Both the position numbers and the translations under genes were made by a program. 64,000 nucleotides of DNA from a virus: positions 88,892 through 152,891 of IMG/VR virus record IMGVR_UViG_3300045988_066369; one strand, 5' to 3'. Shown here piece after piece: positions 5,601 to 64,000 of this stretch. The notes under the pieces were generated by a model. It saw only the letters and a program-made list of their open reading frames with translations, did not search any database and had not been told where the DNA came from. The first letter of the stretch is position 1. The number at the start of each line of letters is the position of its first letter.

Positions 5601-5796
5601 ACTCTTTGTCTATATACTTAATTTTCTCCACGATGGAATCGTTAACTATATAGATGCTATCTCTAATTATAGAATCCCTTACTATTTCCTGCACATTAGG
5701 CGGAGAAACTGCGGTTTCCTTCTTAGGTATTAGCAAATAAATAATTAGCAATCCCATCAAGGCTATTAAGATATAGCAAAACTTAGTCCTGTTCAT
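5491..5796 (-). CDS. membrane-anchored protein
   Basis: 101 aa; single N-terminal TM helix ILIALMGLLIIYLLI. Confidence 0.35.
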   Translation of the reverse strand: MNRTKFCYILIALMGLLIIYLLIPKKETAVSPPNVQEIVRDSIIRDSIYIVNDSIVEKIKYIDKEYDEKVSTIMSSSDSINLCFFSEYIDRYNNQRATKNN

Positions 5797-6367
5797 TTAG
5801 CTCAACGCCTATTGCCTTGGCTTTAGTTACCAGTTCAGCGCATTTAACTACATCTATACCTTCTTTAGCTAGATTCAAAGCTTGCTTCTCTTTATCAGAG
5901 AGATTTTTGATTTCGTTCTTGAGGGCTTCTTTTCTTTCGAATCGAGCTTTCATTTGGTTATACCCCTTAATGATACGCTCTGGATTTTCTTTCAAGAAAG
6001 TAAGCTCCTGTTCCAAGAATGCTTTTACCAGCACTTTACCTGCTACACCTCTAGATGTAGTATAAATAGCTGGACACTTTGGATCATGAAGAGCCTTATC
6101 GTAAGCCTTCTTCTGTCCCTTAGCCAAATCGAAGGTATCACTAGGATTACATACTGCAATACCAACGGTTACTACTCTACAGATTCTAGCATAGTCCGGA
6201 TCATTTGTGCATATGTATTCATCGGGAGCTACCCAACCTACTGCTAAGACACAATCATCCTCACTTACTTCAGCAGCCTGACTTAAAGCACAAGCTACAA
6301 TTTTACGTTCTTCACCCTTAAAGTCTACAAATGAGTCTACCATGTACTCAATCACATCCTGTTTCAT
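5783..6367 (-). CDS. hypothetical protein
   Basis: 194 aa ORF. Confidence 0.45.
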   Translation of the reverse strand: MKQDVIEYMVDSFVDFKGEERKIVACALSQAAEVSEDDCVLAVGWVAPDEYICTNDPDYARICRVVTVGIAVCNPSDTFDLAKGQKKAYDKALHDPKCPAIYTTSRGVAGKVLVKAFLEQELTFLKENPERIIKGYNQMKARFERKEALKNEIKNLSDKEKQALNLAKEGIDVVKCAELVTKAKAIGVELNEQD

Positions 6368-8114: not shown

Positions 8115-8544
8115 CTACTACATATTTTAAGATTTCATAACTTTCTTCCAGACCTGCCCTATCATCTAGGAGGATATTGTAATAAGGTTTCTTAGATTTA
8201 GAGAATATAGAACTACTAATGTTTGGAGCAGATAAAGTATTAGAAGTAATATTTGCTATTCCTAATCGCATACAAATTGTCTGCTTTGCCATAATTTTAT
8301 AATCATCTTCATCAGTGGTGAATAAAATCATTTCAAAACCTAGAAGTGAGCATTCTTTAAGTAGTTCTATAACGCAACTATAATCTCCGCCAGTATTATG
8401 GTAATCGAAAATAGTATTATCAAAATCGAAAGCGACTATTAGCTTTCCGTATTTATGATACTCTTCTAATAGTCGTTTCTTGCAAGCTTCTTTCCCAAAA
8501 GGATGATTAAAGTCCATGGTCAATTCTTTGTCTGATTTCTTCAA
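8080..8544 (-). CDS. HAD-superfamily phosphatase-like protein
   Basis: 154 aa; HAD motif I AFDFDNTIFD. Confidence 0.45.
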   Translation of the reverse strand: MKKSDKELTMDFNHPFGKEACKKRLLEEYHKYGKLIVAFDFDNTIFDYHNTGGDYSCVIELLKECSLLGFEMILFTTDEDDYKIMAKQTICMRLGIANITSNTLSAPNISSSIFSKSKKPYYNILLDDRAGLEESYEILKYVVDEIKLNQQGNQ

Positions 8545-10057
8545 GAGAATATTCTTTCTTCAAGATACCATCTTCAAAGACAGTCTCTAAGCATCCCTCT
8601 TTTTCCTCCTCGATTGAGACCTGGTCGGTAGCAGTATACTTCCCATCCAGACATTTATAGACAGCAATCAAACCTTTCAAAGAGTTCTTAGTACCATCAT
8701 CAGTTTTAGGATGTTTGAAGATTTCTTTCAATTCGCCATTTACTACGCAAGCAGTAGCCTTAATAGCAAACCCAAGACTATCTCTACTTGCATACTGATA
8801 GGAATATGAACCTACTCCCAGAACGAGATTACAAGCCGCCATATGAGCGTTTTCTAATCTCAAGTAGATTTGCTTTTGACGTTCCAGAGTAATAGAATCT
8901 CCATAAAGCAGACCAACCTTAGTGCTAGGATAGCGGTAATCCTTTGAAGTAGTATTCCATCCGAAGATTTTACCAAGCATATAATATGCCCCATAATATT
9001 GACCTTCGGACACTTCAACATACTCTGCATCGTCGTTAAACGGAGCATAGCAGCAATAATACTTACCTTCTTTCATTCTGGTATTGAAGTGAGGATTAGT
9101 TCTCAACCCGCAGATTATATCTACTGGGTCTCCACTATCAGGACGGATTACTACTCTACCATCACGAGCCATAATGTCTTTCTTCAGCTTGGGTAAGAAA
9201 TTTTCAATTACATTCCAGAAATCCCAAGTATCAGATACAATAGAAACAAACCCAGAAGGATACAAATCATTAATTAGACGTTTGAAAGTGCCTAGCTCAT
9301 CTTCCTCCCCTCCAGCACACATTACAGAGTGTTCTGTTGCTGGAACTGTAGCAGCAATCAATTCCTTGTCTGAATTAGCTCCATAATATTCTTCCAGGGC
9401 AGCAATAGCTGGAATAGTCTCACTTCCCACAAAAGAAGTCATATGCGCCATACCAGATATGATTGCAGCTTCCATTCCCGCCATACCTCGCATTGAGAAA
9501 TCATGACAACAAAAACCAAGATTTACATCTGTTGGAAAACCAGTCTTGCAAGCATGACGATGTAGCTCTTTCTTATAGAGCCTAGCTCTAGTAGCAGATG
9601 TGCACGGCATCCACAAGGTACAGCTGATAATAGTCTCTAAGTAGTTAGTTAACCAAAAGAACTCGGGTAGGGTATTTGTAATGGTCATCATGGGAACCCG
9701 AATAGGGCACACAGAACCTTCAGGAAGAGCCTTTATGCGAATTGGTAGATACCCAAGGTCATATAAAGCTTCAATATGTCTGTACCCAACGGATTCAATA
9801 CCAACAAAGTTGTTTACTCTACGATAGAACATCTCCACAGCTTCCTTCTTTGGTAAATTAAAGAAGTTTTTCTCAAACTGTTTAATGAGATATTCTTTGA
9901 TTAGGTATTGAATACCAAATACTACTGAACCTTCGGTTGCTTCTGGGAAGTATTTATTACTTCTAGGAGTCCAGTTACTATAAACTTGTTCAGTACCTTC
10001 GGGGTACATTCTGTGATGGCCCAATTTGTAACCATCTGTAGCATTAATTATTTCCAT
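8507..10057 (-). CDS. nadV: nicotinamide phosphoribosyltransferase (NAMPT/NadV family; possibly Namat-like)
   Basis: 516 aa; blocks matching NAMPT: ATDGYKLGHHRMYPE, LPEGSVCPIRVP...WLTNYLETI, HDFSMRGM, VPATEHS, VIRPDSGDP. Confidence 0.8.
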   Translation of the reverse strand: MEIINATDGYKLGHHRMYPEGTEQVYSNWTPRSNKYFPEATEGSVVFGIQYLIKEYLIKQFEKNFFNLPKKEAVEMFYRRVNNFVGIESVGYRHIEALYDLGYLPIRIKALPEGSVCPIRVPMMTITNTLPEFFWLTNYLETIISCTLWMPCTSATRARLYKKELHRHACKTGFPTDVNLGFCCHDFSMRGMAGMEAAIISGMAHMTSFVGSETIPAIAALEEYYGANSDKELIAATVPATEHSVMCAGGEEDELGTFKRLINDLYPSGFVSIVSDTWDFWNVIENFLPKLKKDIMARDGRVVIRPDSGDPVDIICGLRTNPHFNTRMKEGKYYCCYAPFNDDAEYVEVSEGQYYGAYYMLGKIFGWNTTSKDYRYPSTKVGLLYGDSITLERQKQIYLRLENAHMAACNLVLGVGSYSYQYASRDSLGFAIKATACVVNGELKEIFKHPKTDDGTKNSLKGLIAVYKCLDGKYTATDQVSIEEEKEGCLETVFEDGILKKEYSLEEIRQRIDHGL

Positions 10058-10872
10058 TCTAATTTTTTGTTAAAAGTTATTTCTTTTACTTCTTCAGTTT
10101 CGAGTTTTCCACCTTTGATAAAGTATTGGTGAATAAGAGTATTAATTGTTCTTGCTCCAAGAGTATTATTGCGAAAAGAGCTTTCAAGATACCCTTTCAA
10201 ATCACTAATGACTTGTTCTCTATTCACATTAAAGAATAAGTCAAGATAATTCTGTAACAAGTCTGAACACTCCAAGATAGAATACAAATCCTCTAGAGTG
10301 AGAGGTTTAGTATTGTAGATTAATCCTACTCTTCCAAGAAACTCTGTTTTAACTCCAAAGTCTCTTAGTCTATCTAATGTAATGTGAGGCTCATTATTGA
10401 ACGCTCCGGCAAACACAAATAGTACATTATCAATAGGGACTGATATGTACTTCCCATAATCGCCAAAAACACTAGTAGTATCAGACTCTAAAAGTTTGAG
10501 AAACTCGTTCTGTACACTGGCAGTAGATTCATTAGCCAGTTGGCTATTAGTGTTTCCGTTGATGAAAAGTTTATCAAACTCGTCTACGAAGACTACAATA
10601 GGTGTGTGACTATAGTTAACAAGTGGAGATAGAATTTTGCTTAAACTATTTCCAGAAATACCCTCTTTAGTTATTTGAGCTGCATTAACTTCTAGAAAGC
10701 TAAGTTCATTCATATCACATAACTGTTTAATAGTAAAGCTCTTACCAGACCCGCTCTCACCTGTAAGAATAAAGTGCGGTCTTATCTTGCAATTACTATT
10801 TACAAATACCTGAAATATTCTATTAACTTCCTTAATTAACTTGTCTTGCCCTATTATCTTACTCATAGTCAA
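10048..10872 (-). CDS. P-loop ATPase (AAA-like)
   Basis: 274 aa; Walker A LTGESGSGKSF, Walker B VVFVDEFDK. Confidence 0.5.
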   Translation of the reverse strand: MTMSKIIGQDKLIKEVNRIFQVFVNSNCKIRPHFILTGESGSGKSFTIKQLCDMNELSFLEVNAAQITKEGISGNSLSKILSPLVNYSHTPIVVFVDEFDKLFINGNTNSQLANESTASVQNEFLKLLESDTTSVFGDYGKYISVPIDNVLFVFAGAFNNEPHITLDRLRDFGVKTEFLGRVGLIYNTKPLTLEDLYSILECSDLLQNYLDLFFNVNREQVISDLKGYLESSFRNNTLGARTINTLIHQYFIKGGKLETEEVKEITFNKKLEWK

Positions 10873-12967: not shown

Positions 12968-13402
12968 TTAATCCCACCAAGACCTCATACGTTCAAACTT
13001 TAGTTTGTTGTATAAGTACCAGGCTTTTTCTCTTCTCAGATAATCTTTAAGGATTGGAGTATTCCAATCGAGATCAGCAGCCTTAGGGTGGAATCGATTC
13101 CAATTTTTAGTATTTATGTGTCTATCTACAAATCCCTTTGACCCAGGTCTAAAGTCATGGTGATACGCAGAATCTATTTCTAGCACAATATCTAATAGCT
13201 TTAGTGCTAGATTTAGCTCTTTTTCGACACGTTCATTGCCTTCCGCAATTCTAGATACCTTAAAGTATTCATACATTCTAATTAGGGCTTGTTTCTCTAA
13301 AGAGAGAACAAATCCATAATCGAATGGATAAAACTTCATAGCTTCTTTGATAAGTTTCTTATTCTTATTCTTTCTTAGTTTCATATTCCTGACTTGCTTC
13401 AA
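12968..13402 (-). CDS. hypothetical protein
   Basis: 144 aa ORF. Confidence 0.4.
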   Translation of the reverse strand: MKQVRNMKLRKNKNKKLIKEAMKFYPFDYGFVLSLEKQALIRMYEYFKVSRIAEGNERVEKELNLALKLLDIVLEIDSAYHHDFRPGSKGFVDRHINTKNWNRFHPKAADLDWNTPILKDYLRREKAWYLYNKLKFERMRSWWD

Positions 13403-13808
13403 CTGCTAATTTATCTGCGAGATTATTCATCTGAGAAAAGAAGTCTGAACTTGAAGTATGTCCTTTCACCCAACAAAAATCTATATTAGGACAAAATTGC
13501 TTTGCCTTATTTAAGACCTTGTCGTATAAATTCCATAACTCTACGTTCTTCTTTCTTTTCCATCCTTTAGTAGCACATCCTATGACGTACTGAGAATCTG
13601 AGTAAATAGTCAGAGATTCGATTTTACGACTTACTGCATTTAGAGCATAAATTACTGCTAACAACTCACATTTATTATTAGTAGTATTAGGAATCATCTT
13701 ACTAAATTCATAGGCTTTTTCCCCATCAATTACGAATACAACTCCTACTCCTCCTGTGTCTCTAGACGAGCTAAAAGCTCCATCAGTGAACACTTCTAGC
13801 CTGCTCAT
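13365..13808 (-). CDS. rnhA: ribonuclease HI
   Basis: 147 aa; TDGA...ELLAVIYAL...SDSQYVI...GHTS...NNLADKLA matches RNase H type 1 catalytic motifs. Confidence 0.7.
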   Translation of the reverse strand: MSRLEVFTDGAFSSSRDTGGVGVVFVIDGEKAYEFSKMIPNTTNNKCELLAVIYALNAVSRKIESLTIYSDSQYVIGCATKGWKRKKNVELWNLYDKVLNKAKQFCPNIDFCWVKGHTSSSDFFSQMNNLADKLAVEASQEYETKKE

Positions 13809-14196
13809 CAGCAGTATTTACTCTCATGTTAGTTCCGAGTAATATTGCTATCTTTAGCAAATCGTCTTGATTGTCACAAAATATATTATCTAAAATATAG
13901 TTTGCATAATCAACAATTCTAACTCTCTTTCCTATAGCACCATATTTTTCGTTAAGCCATTTAAGCTGAGGAGCAAAATCTTCTAGGTCGTCCCCTAAAT
14001 GCCGTAAAGCCTTCCTAATAGGAACAGGAAACCACATTTTCTCCTTTATCCAGTCTAAATGACAATAACCAAACGCAAATGCTCTACTTAAATCCTTCTG
14101 AATAAACTCGTCTAACTCGAAATTTCTCTCATGCCTACCAGCTTCCTCGAAATCATCTTTCAAATCCTCACAAAAAATCTGATTAAATTCAATCAT
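13783..14196 (-). CDS. hypothetical protein
   Basis: 137 aa ORF. Confidence 0.4.
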   Translation of the reverse strand: MIEFNQIFCEDLKDDFEEAGRHERNFELDEFIQKDLSRAFAFGYCHLDWIKEKMWFPVPIRKALRHLGDDLEDFAPQLKWLNEKYGAIGKRVRIVDYANYILDNIFCDNQDDLLKIAILLGTNMRVNTADEQARSVH

Positions 14197-35014: not shown

Positions 35015-35575
35015 TTAGTCTAGCCATTCAAATTCTCCTACATTGAAGTGTCTGGCAAAACAAGCTTCGAATACGAGTTTGCCAAACTGAGTTGATACAT
35101 ATTTGGCAATCTCCTCAGATTTGCACGCAAGCAACCCGACAAGGGAATCGGCATTGCCGACGCCATTGTGAGAACTGAAATAGCCGAGACCCGCATCGCC
35201 GCCATCATCCGCGAAGCCGCCCACCAACGCGAATTTCTCGCCCTGATAACGGAAGTGTCCAATGACCTCTGCATCTTTCGGTACTGATTTCATTCTAAAG
35301 AACCGAACCCAAGGATACCATACAGTTCCAGTTAATAGATTAAACTTATGTCCTTCGTTTAAGGCATCGAGAATGACGTGCAATTTGCGCAAAGCATCAA
35401 CAGAGAAATTTGCAGGAACATTACCATAGACATCTCTACTCATGATTTTACAAGCATCTTCGTAAGTCTGTACCCTTGCAGTAATGTCTTCAGACACAAT
35501 TTCTACTTTTCCAGTCTCTGCATTGTAAACTGGTTTGTAACCATCAGGACATTCGATTTCAATTGTCTTTTTCAT
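35015..35575 (-). CDS. hypothetical protein
   Basis: 186 aa ORF. Confidence 0.45.
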   Translation of the reverse strand: MKKTIEIECPDGYKPVYNAETGKVEIVSEDITARVQTYEDACKIMSRDVYGNVPANFSVDALRKLHVILDALNEGHKFNLLTGTVWYPWVRFFRMKSVPKDAEVIGHFRYQGEKFALVGGFADDGGDAGLGYFSSHNGVGNADSLVGLLACKSEEIAKYVSTQFGKLVFEACFARHFNVGEFEWLD

Positions 35576-56864: not shown

Positions 56865-58439
56865 ATGATACAGTCTATTTACACTTCGGTAAGTAACGCA
56901 GATATAGTGCCTTGTGGTAAAAAGGGTAAGCCTATAAAATGTGAGCCTATACCTCTCTTAAGAAATAACTATTTAGGAGAATATAGGACAGAACTAGAAA
57001 AAGCTAAAGTAAGAAAGAACTTAGGTATTGCTGATGAGTAGAGTCTATTGTGGGGAAACATTAGTGGAACCATAGAACTGCAAAAAGACCTAGTATAGTA
57101 TATAGAACAAAAATGGACCTATACTAGTGACGTTGCAGAAGGTATTAATACTGTGAAGGATGCCCTAGACTATGCCCTATACTTTATTAGTGAATATGAA
57201 TCTAATACAGAAGCAATAGAAGAACTGAAAGTCGATATAAGCAATATTAGAACTTCTATATCTGTATTGAAGGAGGATTTACAACGAGAAATTGATACTA
57301 ATAGAAAAGGGATTAATAATCTATCTGAAGAAATAGTAAAAATCAATGAAGCTATAGTTGAGTTGAATAATGCTATTGAGAATATAGATGTTGATAAAAA
57401 CATTCTTAATTGGATTAAGAATAGTCTCCAAAATTCCAAAACTATAGAACTAAAGGAAGATAATTCTTTAGAGGTGATTTTATCTACTTAGGAAGATAAT
57501 GCTATTCATTTAATAGAATAGGAGATTGGAGAGGAAACCTCTTCTATTATCCTTCCAGGTATCTATGTTAAGAATCTTGAACCTGCTCTAGAAGAAACAA
57601 AGAAAGAAGTATAGAAAACTTAGGAAGCACAACAAGAGACAAATACTAAAGTAGAAGCTAATACTGAAAGTATTACTAATATACAAACTAACTTAGAAAC
57701 TATAGCTACTTATTAGACAGAACTCCCAGATGATACTACTTCAACAGTAATTGAAGGGACTACAGTAGAGAAACTTAAGGGCAAGCCCTTTAATGAGATT
57801 ATTGATACTTTACTATTTCCAACAGTAGTTAGAGATTTAGTATACCCATAGCTTTATTATAGTTTTACTTCTCAAATAGTAGAAGTAGGAACTGCTTTAT
57901 TAACTCCTACACTTACATTTATAAAGAATGATGCTGGAGAAGAAACTGACAGACAAGAAACTATTACTTATAACAGTTCTCCTGTAGAGTCTGATACATA
58001 TAATTCTATTGGTACTTATACTCACTCTGGTACAGTGAGTTATGCCGCTGGAGAATATTTGATAAACAATAAAGGAGAAGTTACAGATAAGAGAGTAGAA
58101 GCTGGTTCTATTTCCGCTACCGCTTAGGTAGTAGCCACATATCCTTGGTATTCTGGTAATACTGATAGTGTGATTAAATAGGCGCTAGTTCCTTTTGGAC
58201 AATCGTCTGGAACTATCACATTTTCACTAAGTGGTAAGGCTATTATAAAATTGCCAGGAAGTAACACATAGTTAAATTCATTTACCGTAGATGGGGGACT
58301 TAGATATTTAAATGTAGACCTAAGTGGTTGGGAAACGTCTACCGAGTAGATAAATGGATTTACTTACAAGGTATGGACTAAGAAAGATACTTACTCCTCA
58401 GCATTGCCACATCAAATTAACTTTATTCTATCACAATAA
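56865..58439 (+). CDS. structural protein, 524 codons, TAG-recoded (coiled-coil segment)
   Basis: Continuous frame-0 reading MIQSIYTSVSNADIVPCGKKGKPIKCEP...; track ORF 57153..57491 is a fragment. Confidence 0.55.
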
Positions 58440-60283
58440 TGGCATTTAAATATACAGGTGATGCTACCTTAGGTGTCGCTTTAACCGTAGAAACTCCGAA
58501 GCCTCTCGATAATAGAACAGTCGTTAATAACTTAGACGAACTTTATTCTATTCCAGAGAAGTATGCTTATCAAGGTATGACCGTTGCTAACATAGATAAC
58601 GGAAATATTTATATGCTAATTGATAAGTCTAAGATTAAATACAAGGAAGGATGGAAAGCATCCTATGAATCTATCTAGATAATCACCTGTACAGAGGCTG
58701 AATATAAAGAATGGTCTGAGAATACTACAGACGATTTTAGGCCCATAGATGAAAGTAAAACGTATCTTCATGCTGAGACATATTATTATATATATGAGGA
58801 TAGCTTAGACGATGACTAGTTTTACCTATCCGCGGAATGGGGAAAAAAGATAGAAGAGCAATTAAAACAGAAGGCCCTTAATACTACTGTAGTATAGATT
58901 AGAACAGACTTAGATAACACTATTGCCAGCCTATCAGATTATGCTACACTGGAAGAATTAACTACTAATTATGTCTCTAATGATTCTTTAGCTCTATCCC
59001 TGACTAAGTATTATACTAAGGAAGAAACAGACGATATTTTCGTTACTAAAGAAAGTCTTAGAGGAGAGGGAATGGAAGGAGATGATTTTGTCTTCGTTAC
59101 AAAGAAAGAATATGAGGAAGATTAGTAGGCCATCCAAGACGAGTTAGATAAAACTCTTAAGGTAGATGGAGATGGTTCCTTAGAAAGCATCACTGTTGGA
59201 TAGATAAAATCTCCTGTAGTAGAGGGAGAGGGAGAGAGCTAGCTAGTAGTAGACGTTAGGTCTGAAGGATTATTTATAGGTGAAGATTAGATTGCTACTG
59301 AATCGGATATTCCGAACTTAGTAACATTAACTGAAGAAGAGTATCTAAAGTTAGTAGAGGAAGGGACGGTAGAGCCTGATACATATTACTATGTATATGA
59401 CGTCACAAATGATGCAAAGGTTTATATTACTAAGGAATATTTGGATTAGAATTATCATACTACCAATCAATATCAGTCCTGGGTTGCTACAAATTATTAC
59501 TCCAAGAAGTAGATTGATGAAATAGTTCAAGGTTTGCAAAAACTTGAAAACTACGTTACTACAGAAGATATTAAGGCTTATTATACTATTTAGCAGGTTG
59601 ATGACAAATTTCTTACTAAGGAAAATGCTCAGTCTACTTATGCTACTCAATAGTCATTATCTGATTTATCAGATTAGATAGCCGAAGATTACGTAACAAA
59701 AGAAAGTTTAAGGGGAGACTCTCCTGAAACCGGAGATGATGATTTCATATTTGTTACCTAGAAAAAATATCAGGATGATTAGGCTGCTGCTGCTAAAGAA
59801 TTTAGCACTGAGCTTTTGAAATCTACATCAGTAGAAACTTCTGATATTACTATTTAGAAAATTGGAGAAAAAGAAGTACAATAGGGAACAACTGGAGAAC
59901 CTTCTGAGGAAACAGGAACTGAGCAAGTTATTGAGAGTTCTGTTAAACTTACCACAGAAGATAACAGGCTATTTGCTGGAGGCAAGCAAGTTGCTATTAC
60001 TGAAGAAGTACCAAAACTTGTATGCTTACCACAAGCTGATTATGATGACCTAGTTGAGAATAGTAAGACTGAAGAAGATACTTATTATTGCACCTATGGA
60101 GAAAAAGATTTACAAGATACTGGATATGTTAGGAGCGAATATCTTATAGAGAGATACTACACCAAAGCTGAGGTAGAAGAACTAATTAGCTAGGCCGTAG
60201 CCGAATTGTAGAAAAAGATAGACGCTTTATAGCCAGGTTCTAGTGTAGAGGTAGGTGGAGAAAATGAACAATTAATATTTTAA
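58439..60283 (+). CDS. tail/fibre-like protein with internal sequence repeats, 614 codons, TAG-recoded, ends TAA
   Basis: Continuous frame-2 reading; repeats TKESLRGEG..GDDFVFVTKKEYEED / TKESLRGDSPETGDDDFIFVT(Q)KKYQDD and YYYIYEDSLDDD / YYYVYDVTND. Confidence 0.55.
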
Positions 60284-60288
60284 ACAAT

Positions 60289-60498
60289 ATGGGAACAATT
60301 TATATTGAAGGACAGTTTAAGAGTTCTGCCAAACCAGTAAAAGTTGTTGGAGGAAGTATAGGAGGCTCTGGAGTAGACTAGGAAGTTCTCAAGAACTATG
60401 CTACTAAAGCAGAATTGTAGAAGGCTGTTGAGGACCTAACTGCTTCCATAGAGGGAATAGATCACGATGTAGTTGATGAAACTTTAATAATACAATGA
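60289..60498 (+). CDS. small hypothetical protein (2 in-frame TAG), ends TGA
   Basis: MGTIYIEGQFKSSAKPVKVVGGSIGGSGVD(Q)EVLKNYATKAEL(Q)KAVEDLTASIEGIDHDVVDETLIIQ. Confidence 0.4.
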
Positions 60499-60499
60499 T

Positions 60500-62317
60500 A
60501 TGGCAGCAATCAAATCTATAAAGGTTGGGGAAACCACATACGATTTAAAAGCTACTTACGATGGTGCTGGAAATGTTATAGATACGACATATGCCAAGGC
60601 TAATGCAATTCCAACTAAAACTTCTTAGTTACAGAATGATAGTGGATATTTAACTGAGCATTAGGATATTAGTGAATTAGCTACTAAGGGTGAGCTTGAA
60701 GGCAAAGTAGATAAGGAGTTAGGAAAGGGACTTTCTGAAGCCAATTATACTGAAACTGAGAAGGAAAAGTTAAGTACTATAGCTAATAATGCTAATAATT
60801 ATGTACATCCAACTACTTCTGGAAATAAACATATTCCATCTGGAGGAGCGTCTGGATAGATGCTAGTTTTCTCAGCAGATGGTACTGCTGAATGGGCAGA
60901 TTCAAGTTCTAAGCTAGAAGAGCAATTTACAGCGCTAAATGAGGCTTGGGAAGAATTGTAGAAGGCACAACAAAAGCTTGATAAGTAGATTACTGAGCTA
61001 AATAGTAATATGGATTTATATTCCTATGGAGTAGAATGGGATGTTACAGTAGCATCTCCGGAACTTACTAGAATAGGTAATCCTTTGCTGCATAAATCTC
61101 TTCCTATTCAATCAGCGTATAGAGGTTGTGTAGCAAACAATGATGTAGTAAATTACTATCTGTTTCCAGATGACTGGTCTTATAAAGAAGACGGAGAAAC
61201 TCCATCTGTCTTAGATGGAACTGATGGAACAGTAAGAGTTAATACTCCTAAATTTTATGGAAAATCTGGCAGCGATGGAAACAAAAGATGGGTTAGAACT
61301 TCTACTGTCAAAATTGATGATTCATGGGTAGAAATTCCTGAACTATTAATAGATGCATACAGAAGTACAGTTGATACCACAGTCTCCGCAACTCCAAAAG
61401 CTGTATCAGTAGTTAATACTACTACTGCATTTAGAGGTGGAGGAAATAGAGCTAACTACGATGATTATCTAACTACAGAATTAGAAACTAAGGATATATT
61501 CAGAAGTGATTTAGGAAAGCCTAGAACTAATATTTCTAGAGCTACTATGAGAACATATGCAACAAATGCTGGTTCAGAATTGCTATGCTATGAATATTAC
61601 AAATGGATATTCTACTGGAATTATGTCATTGAATATGCTAATTTTAATTCTTAGGCTGCATATAATGCAGAGTTAACTGCGGATGGATATCATCAAGGGG
61701 GTTTGGGACCTGGAGTTACAGATTGGGCTAACACAGCTACAAGTTGGTCAGGATATAATGCAACATATCCACTTACGCCTTGTGGTTACTGCAATGAATT
61801 TGGTAACTTCACTGGAGTAAAAGATTTAGTTATTCCAGAATGTACAGCTCAAGATGGCACAAATACAGTAGCAACTCATACATTTAAAGTACCTCGCTGG
61901 AGAGGGTTCGATAATCCGTTTGGAGACATTTGGACTAACCTGGACGGAGTAGTTATAGTGAGAGCAGCTGCTAATGAGATTAGCACTGTCTATACAACTA
62001 CTAACGTATCGGAATTTACCGACGTAGTTGGAGAGAAAACCGTTGCAGGATACGAAGTAGCATCTGATGGTTATATTAAGGCATTTGACTTAGGTGAAAC
62101 CGCTGAAATAATTCCATCCGCTGTTGGAGGAAGTGCTACTACTTATATTTGCGATTACCATTACTGCAACGCAAGCAGCACAGCGCTTCGCACGCTGCTG
62201 GTGGGCTGCCGCGCGAGTAGTGGCGGCGCTGCGGGTCTCGGCTCTTTCTATTCTAACTATGGCGTCGGCGGTGCCGCTTCCGATGTCGGGTTCAGGACTC
62301 TGAATAGAGTATCTTAA
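60500..62317 (+). CDS. DGR target: tail-fibre-like receptor-binding protein, 606 codons with at least 6 in-frame TAG, C-terminal variable region
   Basis: Continuous frame-2 reading from ATG 60500 through track ORFs 61010..61654 and 61703..62317; fibre-like motif HIPSGGASG(Q)MLVFSADGTAEW; C-terminus encoded by GC-rich VR. Confidence 0.7.
62194..62293 (+). repeat. DGR variable repeat (VR) at 3' end of target gene
   Basis: 100-nt GC-rich segment; base-by-base alignment to TR (offset +201) shows 24 mismatches, all at TR adenines. Confidence 0.85.
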
Positions 62318-62394
62318 GATATACAATATAAAAATCGATTTAGATGATAAATCGTAGGATATTACTTCTAAAAACCGTTGATTGGCAAAAAAGT

Positions 62395-62494
62395 ACTGCT
62401 AGTAGGCAGCAACGCGAATAATGGCAGCAATGCAGGTCTCAGCTATTTCAATTCTAACAATGACGTCAGCAATGCCAATTCCAATGTCGAGTTA
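62395..62494 (+). repeat. DGR template repeat (TR), non-coding, AAT/AAC-rich
   Basis: 31 adenines of which 24 are substituted in VR (16 A->G, 5 A->C, 3 A->T); zero non-A mismatches. Confidence 0.85.
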
Positions 62495-62634
62495 TTATAT
62501 ATTTAGAAACATTTTATTATTTTTTTTTAGTTTGCTAAGTAATATCCTTGCCTCTAGGCAAAAGATAACATAGTGTTGAATGAAGGGTGTTAGTAGGTTA
62601 ACTCTCGAACGCTTCCGATGAAATATATAAAAAA

Positions 62635-63846
62635 TTGAAACGTGTAGGATATTTGCACGAGAAAGTATACGCTGAAGATAACATCGAACTAGCTGACGAT
62701 AAAGCTAGAAGAAATAAGTCTATTAGATGTGGAATCAAGCAGCATGATAAGAATAGATTAAAAGAAAATAAGGAATTATCCGATAAGTTAAGGGATTTGA
62801 TTTATCAAACCTCTGAATATAGTACCTTTATAATATACGAACCTAAAGAAAGATTAATCTTTAGACTTCCATACTATCCAGATAGAATAACTCACCATGC
62901 TATAATGAATATTATGGAGCCTATTTGGACTAGTATATTTATAGACCAAACATATTCCTCTATACGAAATAGAGGTATTCATAAAGTAGAGTATGATTTG
63001 TTCAAGGTGTTATAGAAACATCCAGAAGAAACAAAGTATTGCTTGAAAATGGATATAAAAAAATTCTATCCTTCTATAACTCACGACATTTTATACGAAA
63101 TGTTATAGAGAAAGATAAAGGATAAAAAACTATTAAAACTGTTGAAAGAAATAATTTATTCAGCGAAGGGAGTTCCTATTGGAAATTATCTATCACAATT
63201 CTTTGCAAATTTATATCTGACATATTTTGACCACTGGGTAAAAGAGGAGTTAAAATGTAAGTACTACTTTCGATATGCTGACGATATTGTGATTCTTGGT
63301 AATGACAAGAATTATTTGAGAAATGTATTAGTATCTATAAAACTATATCTGAAACAGGTTCTTAACCTAGAGTTGAAGCCTAATTATCAAATATTCCCTG
63401 TAGAAAGCAGAGGTATTGATTTCGTAGGCTATAAATTCTATCATACTCATGTTCTACTGAGAAAATCTATAAAAATGAGGATGTTTAGGCTTATAAATCT
63501 ATATAAATAGAATAAGATTGATAAAGATGAATTGAATAGAAGAATGAGGTCTTATTTTGGATGGATGAAATTTTGCAACTCTAAGAACTTGCTGAGAAAG
63601 GTAGAGGAGTTAACTGGATTGAAATTCTCTAACTGGAATGGAAAAGAAGTTAACATATCTAAGTTTTATAATAAATATATTCACATTGTAGAGGTTGTTG
63701 ATTATGACAATCATTTTCGAGTGCATTTCATGTATAACAATAAACCCTACTATTTTAAAAGTAAGAATAGGAGATTACACTATTCTTTGCTTAGATACAA
63801 ATTTCCTATAAATTTTAAAATAACACCTTATGTTAGAGCCGAATAG
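62635..63846 (+). CDS. DGR reverse transcriptase (3 in-frame TAG)
   Basis: Track ORFs 62635..63015, 63142..63510, 63532..63846 share one frame and are joined through TAGs; motifs LKMDIKKFYPSI, GVPIGNYLSQFFANLYL (DGR-type I/LGxxxSQ), YADDIVILG (YxDD). Confidence 0.8.
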
Positions 63847-63853
63847 AATACAA

Positions 63854-64000
63854 ATGGACGTTTATCCTTAGACAATCCAAAAACTTGGGAACGGTACTTA
63901 TTACTATAACTATGATATAAAAGAAATTAGTGTTAAAGTATCTGATTTAGATAATACCGTAAAAGAAAAAACTTACTATAGTTTTATATAGGTATTAATA
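63854..64000 (+). CDS. hypothetical protein, partial (continues past window end), in-frame TAGs
   Basis: MDVYP(TAG)TIQKLGNGTYYYNYDIKEISVKVSDLDNTVKEKTYYSFI(TAG)VLI... Confidence 0.35.

Follow-up and report, generated by a model that had tools for sequence, protein, structure and literature searches.

A diversity-generating retroelement with two target genes, no Avd found beside it, and very probable present activity in an amber-recoded crAss-like gut phage

The stretch of DNA analysed here (the window: 64,000 nt, positions 88,892 to 152,891 of the IMG/VR virus record IMGVR_UViG_3300045988_066369, GC content 35.7%) carries a diversity-generating retroelement (DGR) in which a tail-fibre-like target gene is followed by a template repeat (TR) and by a reverse transcriptase (RT) gene. 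We hold with high confidence that this element is an active, accessory-less DGR (Avd-independent, "Architecture A") of a zeta crAss-like phage reading TAG as glutamine. In the proposed mechanism, the RT, encoded directly downstream, would reverse-transcribe TR and misincorporate opposite the template adenines, and the cDNA would then replace the homologous variable repeat (VR) in two genes. Replacement of VR1 would renew the C-type-lectin tip of the tail-fibre protein encoded beside the cassette, and replacement of VR2 would alter a small 186-aa protein encoded 27 kb off on the other strand. The ten AAY codons of TR and its other A-containing codons would give rise to about 1e16 peptide variants and never to a stop. 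We infer the RNA intermediate, the priming mode, the roles of the RNA elements P1 to P3 described below, and the manner of cDNA integration.

VR1 (62195-62292) and the adjoining TR (62396-62493), both on the plus strand, form a 98-nt direct repeat with a start-to-start spacing of 201. Over this core, 23 mismatches were counted, all of them at TR adenines (16 A>G, 4 A>C, and 3 A>T), and seven adenines were unchanged. The probability that all 23 mismatches land by chance on the 30 A among 98 positions is 1.4e-16. A first-pass annotation, made from the sequence alone, had described 100-nt repeats 201 bp apart with 24 mismatches, every one at a TR adenine, and seven adenines unchanged. The spacing, the restriction to adenines, and the seven unchanged sites stand; the exact repeat core is 98 nt, and 25 mismatches (17/5/3) are found over those 100 nt, beyond which non-A mismatches begin with the next base on either side. 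The GC content of VR1 is 65-66%, as first estimated, and that of TR is 45%; the surrounding DNA had been put at about 33% GC, below the value of the window. TR is non-coding and contains 30 adenines. Read in the VR frame it has ten AAY codons, 8 AAT and 2 AAC (7 AAT had been counted before), no adenine substitution in it can create a stop codon, and its codon table permits about 1e16 peptides. No open reading frame (ORF) of any kind was found between the fibre gene and TR or between TR and the RT gene, in agreement with the earlier remark that no avd-like ORF is evident there.

The whole window was then scanned with TR, ignoring the adenine positions, and this revealed a second VR that the first-pass annotation had missed. 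The copy spans 35133-35230 on the minus strand; past its first four bases, the 94 nt of VR2 (35133-35226) show 19 mismatches to TR, all at adenines (chance of such a 19/19 pattern, 1.5e-12). VR2 draws on the TR that feeds VR1, shares the codon frame of the latter, and is followed by 39 more codons. It lies in target gene 2 (35015-35575, minus strand), a TAG-free gene whose 186-aa product belongs to phrog_11581 (function unknown). The gene is surrounded by tRNA genes, in a non-structural minus-strand block with helicase, nicotinamide phosphoribosyltransferase (NAMPT), ATPase, and RNase H genes, 27 kb from the cassette. No relatives of the protein were found in Pfam or PDB. In the protein database it is represented by 838 clusters, and the 116 full-length proteins examined carry 116 distinct VR peptides. 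Among them, where TR places an adenine at the first or second codon position, peptide entropy reaches 2.20 bits, against 0.04 at the other VR codons and 0.08 elsewhere, and the AAY codons encode 11-15 different residues.

Homologs of target 2 were also observed elsewhere. Two smaller phage contigs with a short RT of 330-344 aa carry two tandem small homologs, each with a VR, beside TR (L056:4907-5786 and L058:4895-5779); this small-protein family thus serves repeatedly as a primary target of DGRs. A much larger viral contig, of 282 kb (L136, IMGVR_UViG_3300045988_113697), encodes a homolog 62% identical to the VR2 protein.

The activity of the element was evaluated by aligning VR1 and TR from the window and 26 IMG/VR relatives (27 genomes). 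The mean entropy of VR1 is 1.295 bits at the 30 A columns, 26 of which are variable, versus 0.091 bits at the 68 non-A columns; the corresponding values in the same genomes are 0.051 bits for TR and 0.15-0.34 bits for the flanks. VR2 behaves in the same way in 32 genomes (1.296 bits at A columns, 0.061 at non-A columns). Polymorphism among relatives is thus restricted to the sites corresponding to A, as the first-pass annotation had anticipated. Each VR1 differs from its own TR by 16-26 adenine differences, with no non-A difference in most genomes, and VRs that have nothing in common at these sites occur in genomes about 97-99% identical in their flanks. The substitution spectrum of VR1, as measured after selection, consists of A>G (67%), A>T (21%), and A>C (12%). 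At six positions, TR itself has acquired lineage-specific non-A substitutions, and every time the identical change is present in VR1 of the same genome (such as the four C>T shared by L022, L026, and L034 or the single T>C of L018). The C>T and T>C variants of these lineages are found in VR2 of those genomes as well. Because these non-A changes of TR recur in VR1 of the same genome, they provide direct evidence of a flow from TR to VR after the lineages had split. Taken together, the A-restricted VR variation, the near-invariant TR, and the copying of non-A changes from TR to VR point, through comparison of genomes and database proteins, to an element that is currently active.

In two relatives (L003, positions 5740-5775, and L032, positions 5800-5850), TR is interrupted over short distances by A>G or A>T changes like those of a VR. 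They reflect either assembly mixing of the repeats, or occasional VR-to-TR conversion or TR self-targeting.

Several points weigh against an active, Avd-independent element. Turnover within populations is deduced from differences between assembled genomes and database proteins, not from reads. Positions 62200, 62203, 62267, and 62289 are G in 27/27 VR1 copies, two of them being synonymous third positions, and a non-A difference, T>G at 62199, is present in 10/27 copies; neutral adenine mutagenesis predicts neither the fixed-G sites nor the T>G change. No strong DNA hairpin is found 3' of either VR, unlike in the Bordetella target. Finally, the Avd search covered the 64-kb window, and an avd gene could be located in the roughly 120 kb of the ~186-kb genome that lie outside it.

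Some of these points would suit a fossil DGR, whose cassette diversified VR1 and VR2 in the past and has since ceased to work, the genomes differing by old inherited alleles: turnover is deduced from assemblies and database proteins, G is fixed at some A sites in every copy, and Avd was not found in the window search. We nevertheless consider a fossil very improbable, because the VRs are entirely different between genomes of nearly identical flanks, and because the recent non-A mutations of TR are already in both VRs of the same genome. Moreover, at 0.06-0.09 bits the non-A positions of the VRs have changed less than the coding flanks (0.15-0.34 bits), which is what continual overwriting from TR should produce, and the RT gene retains an intact ORF that is conserved in thousands of sequences. 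A second alternative, that VR hypervariability is partly an artefact of metagenome assembly, with consensus or chimeric contigs drawn from mixed populations, appears less probable again. Broken or blurred assemblies are a known consequence of variable repeats (PMC8008677), and a few contigs do look suspect: VR1 of L007 has an indel and 6 non-A differences, VR2 of L123 and L133 has indels, and the TRs of L003 and L032 look chimeric. However, chimerism shuffles variants and cannot confine the changes to A sites, the VR of most contigs agrees with its own TR at every non-A position, and JGI, ENA, and Logan agree as independent sources.

The RT gene (62635-63909, plus strand) starts at a TTG (62635), exactly where more distant relatives have ATG, and encodes 403 aa up to its last TAG or 424 aa up to the TAA at 63907-63909. 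In-frame TAG triplets occur at codons 127, 158, 292, and 404, the fourth at 63844-63846, where the first-pass annotation had ended the element; the three reported at first are therefore correct within 403 codons, to which the fourth has to be added. The 21 residues beyond the fourth TAG are disordered in the structure model. The protein matches Pfam RVT_1 (9e-20) and phrog_1423 (1e-113) and carries the motifs PIGNYLSQFFANLYL, with PIGNYLSQ (IGNYLSQ at 63178-63198) and YADD (63274-63285), so that the DGR motif and the YADD noted previously are both present. In DGR RTs, [I/V/L]GxxxSQ replaces the QGxxxSP of group II intron RTs, and YxDD is present. Among PDB sequences the best match was the Bordetella phage RT (bRT, 8ub7), with an E of 4.4e-45; RTs of the group II intron and retron types reached only about 1e-15. 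In addition, the AlphaFold model (pLDDT 81) retrieved states of bRT as the top five Foldseek matches (TM 0.76-0.79 on target, 28-32% identity). These sequence and predicted-structure matches, rather than a phylogeny, assign the RT to the DGR clade, nearer to it than to group II intron or retron RTs, as first proposed. A group II intron, retron, or defence-associated RT was considered and rejected, since the scores are 30 orders of magnitude worse than with bRT, and the Rfam scan of the window detected no group II intron or retron RNA.

An ATG is located six codons 5' of the TTG of the RT gene (62618-62640), out of frame in the window, where the intervening A-run has 6 A's. In a 99%-identical relative (P0121) this A-run is one A longer and the RT is called from the upstream ATG (MKYIKKLKRVGY...). 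The difference is due either to homopolymer length variation or to an assembly error.

The RT possesses an extra C-terminal domain of about 70 aa (63625-63843, plus strand), modelled as beta-beta-beta-alpha-beta with pLDDT 83-88. The alignment with bRT, which does not have this domain, stops at residue ~329 of the window RT. Invariant and near-invariant residues were found in the domain across 62 homologs, and it was seen solely at the C-termini of its own RT family (48 representatives among 1.84 billion proteins). No relatives of it were detected in Pfam or in PDB sequences, where all matches had E > 0.1.

Avd is present in about 74% of DGRs and is essential in Bordetella. Of 90 candidate ORFs in the window, 32 were removed by eye as low-complexity or antisense, which is a limitation of the search; no Avd-type Pfam or NCBIfam match was obtained among the 58 Avd-sized ORFs left, nor for a 125-aa ORF downstream of RT or its neighbours. 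The ORFs surrounding the short RTs of relatives did not contain Avd either. The target-TR-RT layout with nothing between is kept in 38 of 40 more distant relatives. The first-pass annotation had called this DGR complete and directed at a single target. Because no Avd is present in the window search, "complete" applies only in the accessory-less sense of Architecture A, and the targets are two.

We then analyzed the RNA around TR. Folding of the region 62330-62640 gave a long-range stem, P1, that encloses TR and is formed by a 5' arm at 62356-62367 (AGGATATTACTT) and a 3' arm at 62537-62548 (AAGTAATATCCT). Abutting P1 is P2 (62549-62564), a stem-loop TGCC-TCTA-GGCA followed by an unpaired AAAA, and a third stem-loop, P3 (62585-62616), is situated just upstream of the RT start; all are on the plus strand. 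In an alignment of 17 sequences with RT identities down to about 57%, RNAalifold independently predicted P1, P2 with its AAAA, and P3. Compensatory changes were found at 4 of 8 aligned pairs of P1, P2 is invariant except for one compensatory change, and 5 of the 7 pairs of P3 are changed on both sides. Over the 19 helix pairs, 96.9% of the cells are paired versus 35-59% in slid controls, and 10 pairs are changed on both sides versus 0-4 in these controls; none of 500 shuffles matched the observed values. The fold z-score of the whole RNA region is not significant, and support for the helices comes from covariation, not from thermodynamics.

The cryo-electron microscopy structure of the Bordetella DGR ribonucleoprotein shows an upstream:downstream duplex that stops the cDNA, an adjoining short stem-loop, and A-minor adenosines, followed by a single-stranded "thumb ring" and an RT-binding stem-loop, with an Avd-binding stem-loop directly 3' of TR (10.1101/2023.10.23.563531). 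P1, P2 with AAAA, and P3 occur in the same order, and the layout of P2 is that of the "cPRT Stop" stem-loop plus adenosines. By analogy, P1 to P3 may be functionally equivalent to the cPRT Stop and RT-binding elements of Bordetella, P3 being a candidate RT-binding element. The 43 nt between TR and the 3' arm of P1 are AT-rich and poorly conserved, and in the window and four relatives no stem-loop of the Avd-binding type was found there, the folds being no better than those of shuffles. Since this spacer is AT-rich, variable, and unstructured beyond shuffles, the Avd-binding element has no apparent counterpart.

These results bear on the weakest alternative, an ordinary family of repeats arising by duplication and gene conversion or recombination of lectin-domain genes, with an unrelated retron, group II intron, or defence RT nearby: the VR-like patches in the TRs of L003 and L032 could indeed reflect recombination or assembly mixing, but this alternative is effectively refuted and is the least probable of all, because 23/23 and 19/19 differences fall at TR adenines, the non-coding TR is invariant while both coding copies vary, the RT has IGxxxSQ and matches the DGR RT of Bordetella with an E-value 30 orders of magnitude better than any other type, and the RNA structure next to the RT gene covaries.

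Within the preferred reading of an active DGR, we considered a more specific proposal, which is possible and, in our estimate, rather unlikely as a whole. In it, this RT family would run Avd-independent mutagenic retrohoming, with the C-terminal domain standing in for Avd; the domain would position the template:primer duplex and grip the RNA, as Avd does in Bordetella. Of the RNA elements, the Avd-binding stem-loop would correspondingly have been lost, and three would have been retained: the duplex resembling the cPRT Stop, the stem-loop with its adenosines, and the stem-loop that binds the RT. A small non-virion protein of the standard-code early programme would also be diversified, and the RT would be completed only once the suppressor is active. 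Two lines of evidence on the domain were tried and set aside. Its presence does not track the absence of Avd, because relatives without the domain are also without a nearby Avd and there is hence no discrimination, and the 105-aa ORF that follows the short RT of L056 is not a split C-terminal domain (hhalign probability 0.3%).

The 3' end of VR1 (62284-62292, plus strand; TGTCGGGTT, TR: TGTCGAGTT) is a putative element resembling the initiation of mutagenic homing (IMH) site and includes the fixed G at 62289. Both VRs end with GTCGGG where TR reads GTCGAG, the common element being only about 9 nt; by analogy with the IMH/IMH* pair of Bordetella, it might mark the direction of transfer. Downstream (3') of each VR, only weak hairpins are formed, which shuffled sequences equal and which are not conserved. 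A small hairpin, CGATTTA-GATGA-TAAATCG (62336-62354, plus strand), appears in the DNA fold centroid; it follows the stop of target 1 and precedes the 5' arm of P1. This hairpin was seen only in the close clade, and L013 preserves the pairing with CAGTTTA...TAAACTG.

Target gene 1 (60500-62317, plus strand) encodes a tail-fibre-like protein of 605 aa plus the stop, in accordance with the 606 codons given previously, and has 6 in-frame TAG read as sense. The protein belongs to the phrog_5302 "tail protein" family (E 1e-82) and ends with ...LLVGCRASSGGAAGLGSFYSNYGVGGAASDVGFRTLNRVS, VR1 encoding the last ~33 residues before FRTLNRVS. In the structure model, the C-terminal ~220 aa form a C-type-lectin-like domain ending in VR1, and the closest folds are the DGR variable proteins TaqVP, Mtd, and AvpA together with C-type lectins; a C-type-lectin fold was among the expectations of the first-pass annotation. 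Target 1 thus has its VR where DGRs have it, at the C-terminus of a lectin-fold protein. The A-only mismatches, the DGR-clade RT, the phrog_5302 family, and the lectin-like model bear out the original proposal of a DGR targeting the C-terminus of a tail-fibre-like protein. Variants of the fibre may change the host range of the phage.

The phage itself has many relatives in IMG/VR, on contigs of 183-193 kb, and a megablast of positions 58000-64000 against INPHARED retrieved no near-identical phage. Its TerL is 25-29% identical to Crassvirales TerL and 43-44% identical to that of unclassified gut phages, and its RT is 52-60% identical to the RTs of named crAss-like phages. The traits of the zeta type were found: a crAss-like-related terminase, relatives of ~183-193 kb against genomes of ~155-190 kb in the group, tRNA blocks, and TAG recoding with a suppressor tRNA. 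The sequence features thus identify the host of the element as a large, amber-recoded gut phage of the zeta crAss-like group (proposed Echekviridae; Crassvirales-related), the "zeta" assignment resting on the match of genome features to the amber-recoded clade in Table 1 of PMC12386605 and not on phylogenetic placement.

From 49.3 kb to the end of the window, the plus-strand genes become long ORFs once TAG is read as sense. These late genes contain 4-28 in-frame TAG per gene and TAG terminates none of them; the minus-strand genes are essentially TAG-free, in-frame TAG being limited to the plus-strand late genes. An amber suppressor tRNA with anticodon CTA (44864-44936, plus strand) was identified by ARAGORN and Rfam, and it is needed for full translation of the RT and target 1. 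Because this tRNA resembles the phage's own tRNA-Gln(UUG) (58/73 identical), TAG is most likely read as glutamine. RT production may be delayed until the amber suppressor is available. The first-pass annotation had gone further in coupling diversification to the recoded late programme: the TAG codons of the RT gene are there, the coupling itself is conjectural, and target 2 is TAG-free and lies in the non-recoded block.

The window contains 22-25 tRNA genes between 16.6 and 45 kb, mostly in a minus-strand block. Together with a NAMPT gene (8507-10069, minus strand; phrog_448, 7.5e-183), they are typical of large crAss-like phages. Another tRNA has the anticodon TTA, which would read the ochre codon TAA (42512-42582, minus strand; "tRNA-Stop" in ARAGORN, 57.9 bits with the Rfam tRNA model), and TAA is the commonest stop among the window genes despite this tRNA. 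A full-length RAGATH-14 RNA lies 27 nt from it (42609-42779, minus strand; 172.7 bits, above the gathering score). An RNase HI gene was found at 13365-13817 on the minus strand (NCBIfam PRK00203, 1e-23; Pfam RNase_H, 5e-25). Its role is probably in replication, and its product could act on the RNA:cDNA hybrid of the DGR. Downstream of the RT, an ORF of about 125 aa (phrog_11557, function unknown; 63830-64000, plus strand) overlaps the RT read-through tail and is cut at the window end. It is kept downstream of RT in close relatives, is full length at L010:7196-7573, and is not Avd-like by Pfam.

With dozens of near-identical genomes of ~186 kb and hundreds of database proteins, the element offers an unusually clean natural data set, in which one TR feeds two targets and point mutations of TR can be traced into both VRs. 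It is also a compact Avd-free system, consisting of an RT, about 280 nt of structured RNA, and two targets, in which the elements of the Bordetella cryo-electron microscopy structure are recognisable by covariation. Having a defined RT and RNA, it allows a direct test of how the ~29% of DGRs that are Avd-less work. Hypermutation may serve a purpose other than fibre variation in the second target, a candidate in this respect whose family recurs as a DGR target in gut phages of other kinds.

The closest known systems are the DGRs of the zeta crAss-like clade, which was described as having genomes of 182-189 kb, ~34.5% GC, a CTA suppressor, and DGRs in 18 of 43 genomes, with amber codons in seven RT genes and Avd in only two genomes (PMC12386605, 2025). 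The zeta RTs have GxxxSQ, reach 414 aa with variable C-termini, and serve fibre targets with C-terminal lectin domains (same source). The window shares with them genome size (~182-189 kb), ~34.5-35.7% GC, many tRNAs, the CTA suppressor, amber codons in the RT gene, GxxxSQ, an RT of ~400-414 aa with an extended C-terminus, the absence of Avd, and a tail-fibre target whose C-terminus is a C-type-lectin domain. The window RT is 73-75% identical to database RTs of 414 aa encoded on contigs of ~184.5 kb, and the window is therefore a sister lineage, distinct from the named genomes of the clade. The accessible part of PMC12386605 describes one VR per cassette for this clade, and the DGR of the window has two targets; that part makes no mention of a non-adjacent second target, of RNA structure flanking TR, or of cross-genome evidence of activity.

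With the prototype, the BPP-1 DGR (mtd-avd-TR-brt), the element has in common the adenine-specific transfer from TR to VR, a homologous RT (28-32% identity, TM 0.76-0.79 on bRT), and a target of the receptor-binding type with a C-type-lectin fold and VR at its C-terminus. It differs from BPP-1 in that no avd gene and no counterpart of the Avd-binding stem-loop 3' of TR were found, in the extra ~70-aa C-terminal domain of the RT, in having neither a GC-rich IMH nor a strong hairpin 3' of VR, and in having two targets and genes that use TAG as a sense codon. In a curated set of 372 DGRs, 29% have Architecture A, the accessory-less TR-RT, and it was described as common for a phage genome to hold a further target that is not adjacent, within ~50 kb (Wu et al. 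2018, PMC5758913). The target-TR-RT core without an accessory gene and the non-adjacent target conform to this class; the data set predates crAss-like and recoded phage genomes. In the gut phage Quimbyvirus, too, the DGR has two targets, of which one is structural and the other is not (Benler et al. 2021, PMC8008677). The Quimbyvirus RT is, however, split over three overlapping frames, whereas the window RT is a single frame with amber codons, and the second target of Quimbyvirus is in a defence-related island, whereas that of the window lies among tRNA genes and genes of unknown function. A DGR with an amber-interrupted RT, no Avd, and a lectin-tipped fibre is therefore of a kind already described in 2025 for phages of the zeta crAss-like group, and accessory-less and two-target phage DGRs were known earlier. 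What is new here is the non-adjacent second target, the covariation-supported RNA without an Avd-binding element, and the delineation of the conserved C-terminal domain of the RT; these additions make the element more useful as a model without placing it in a new category.

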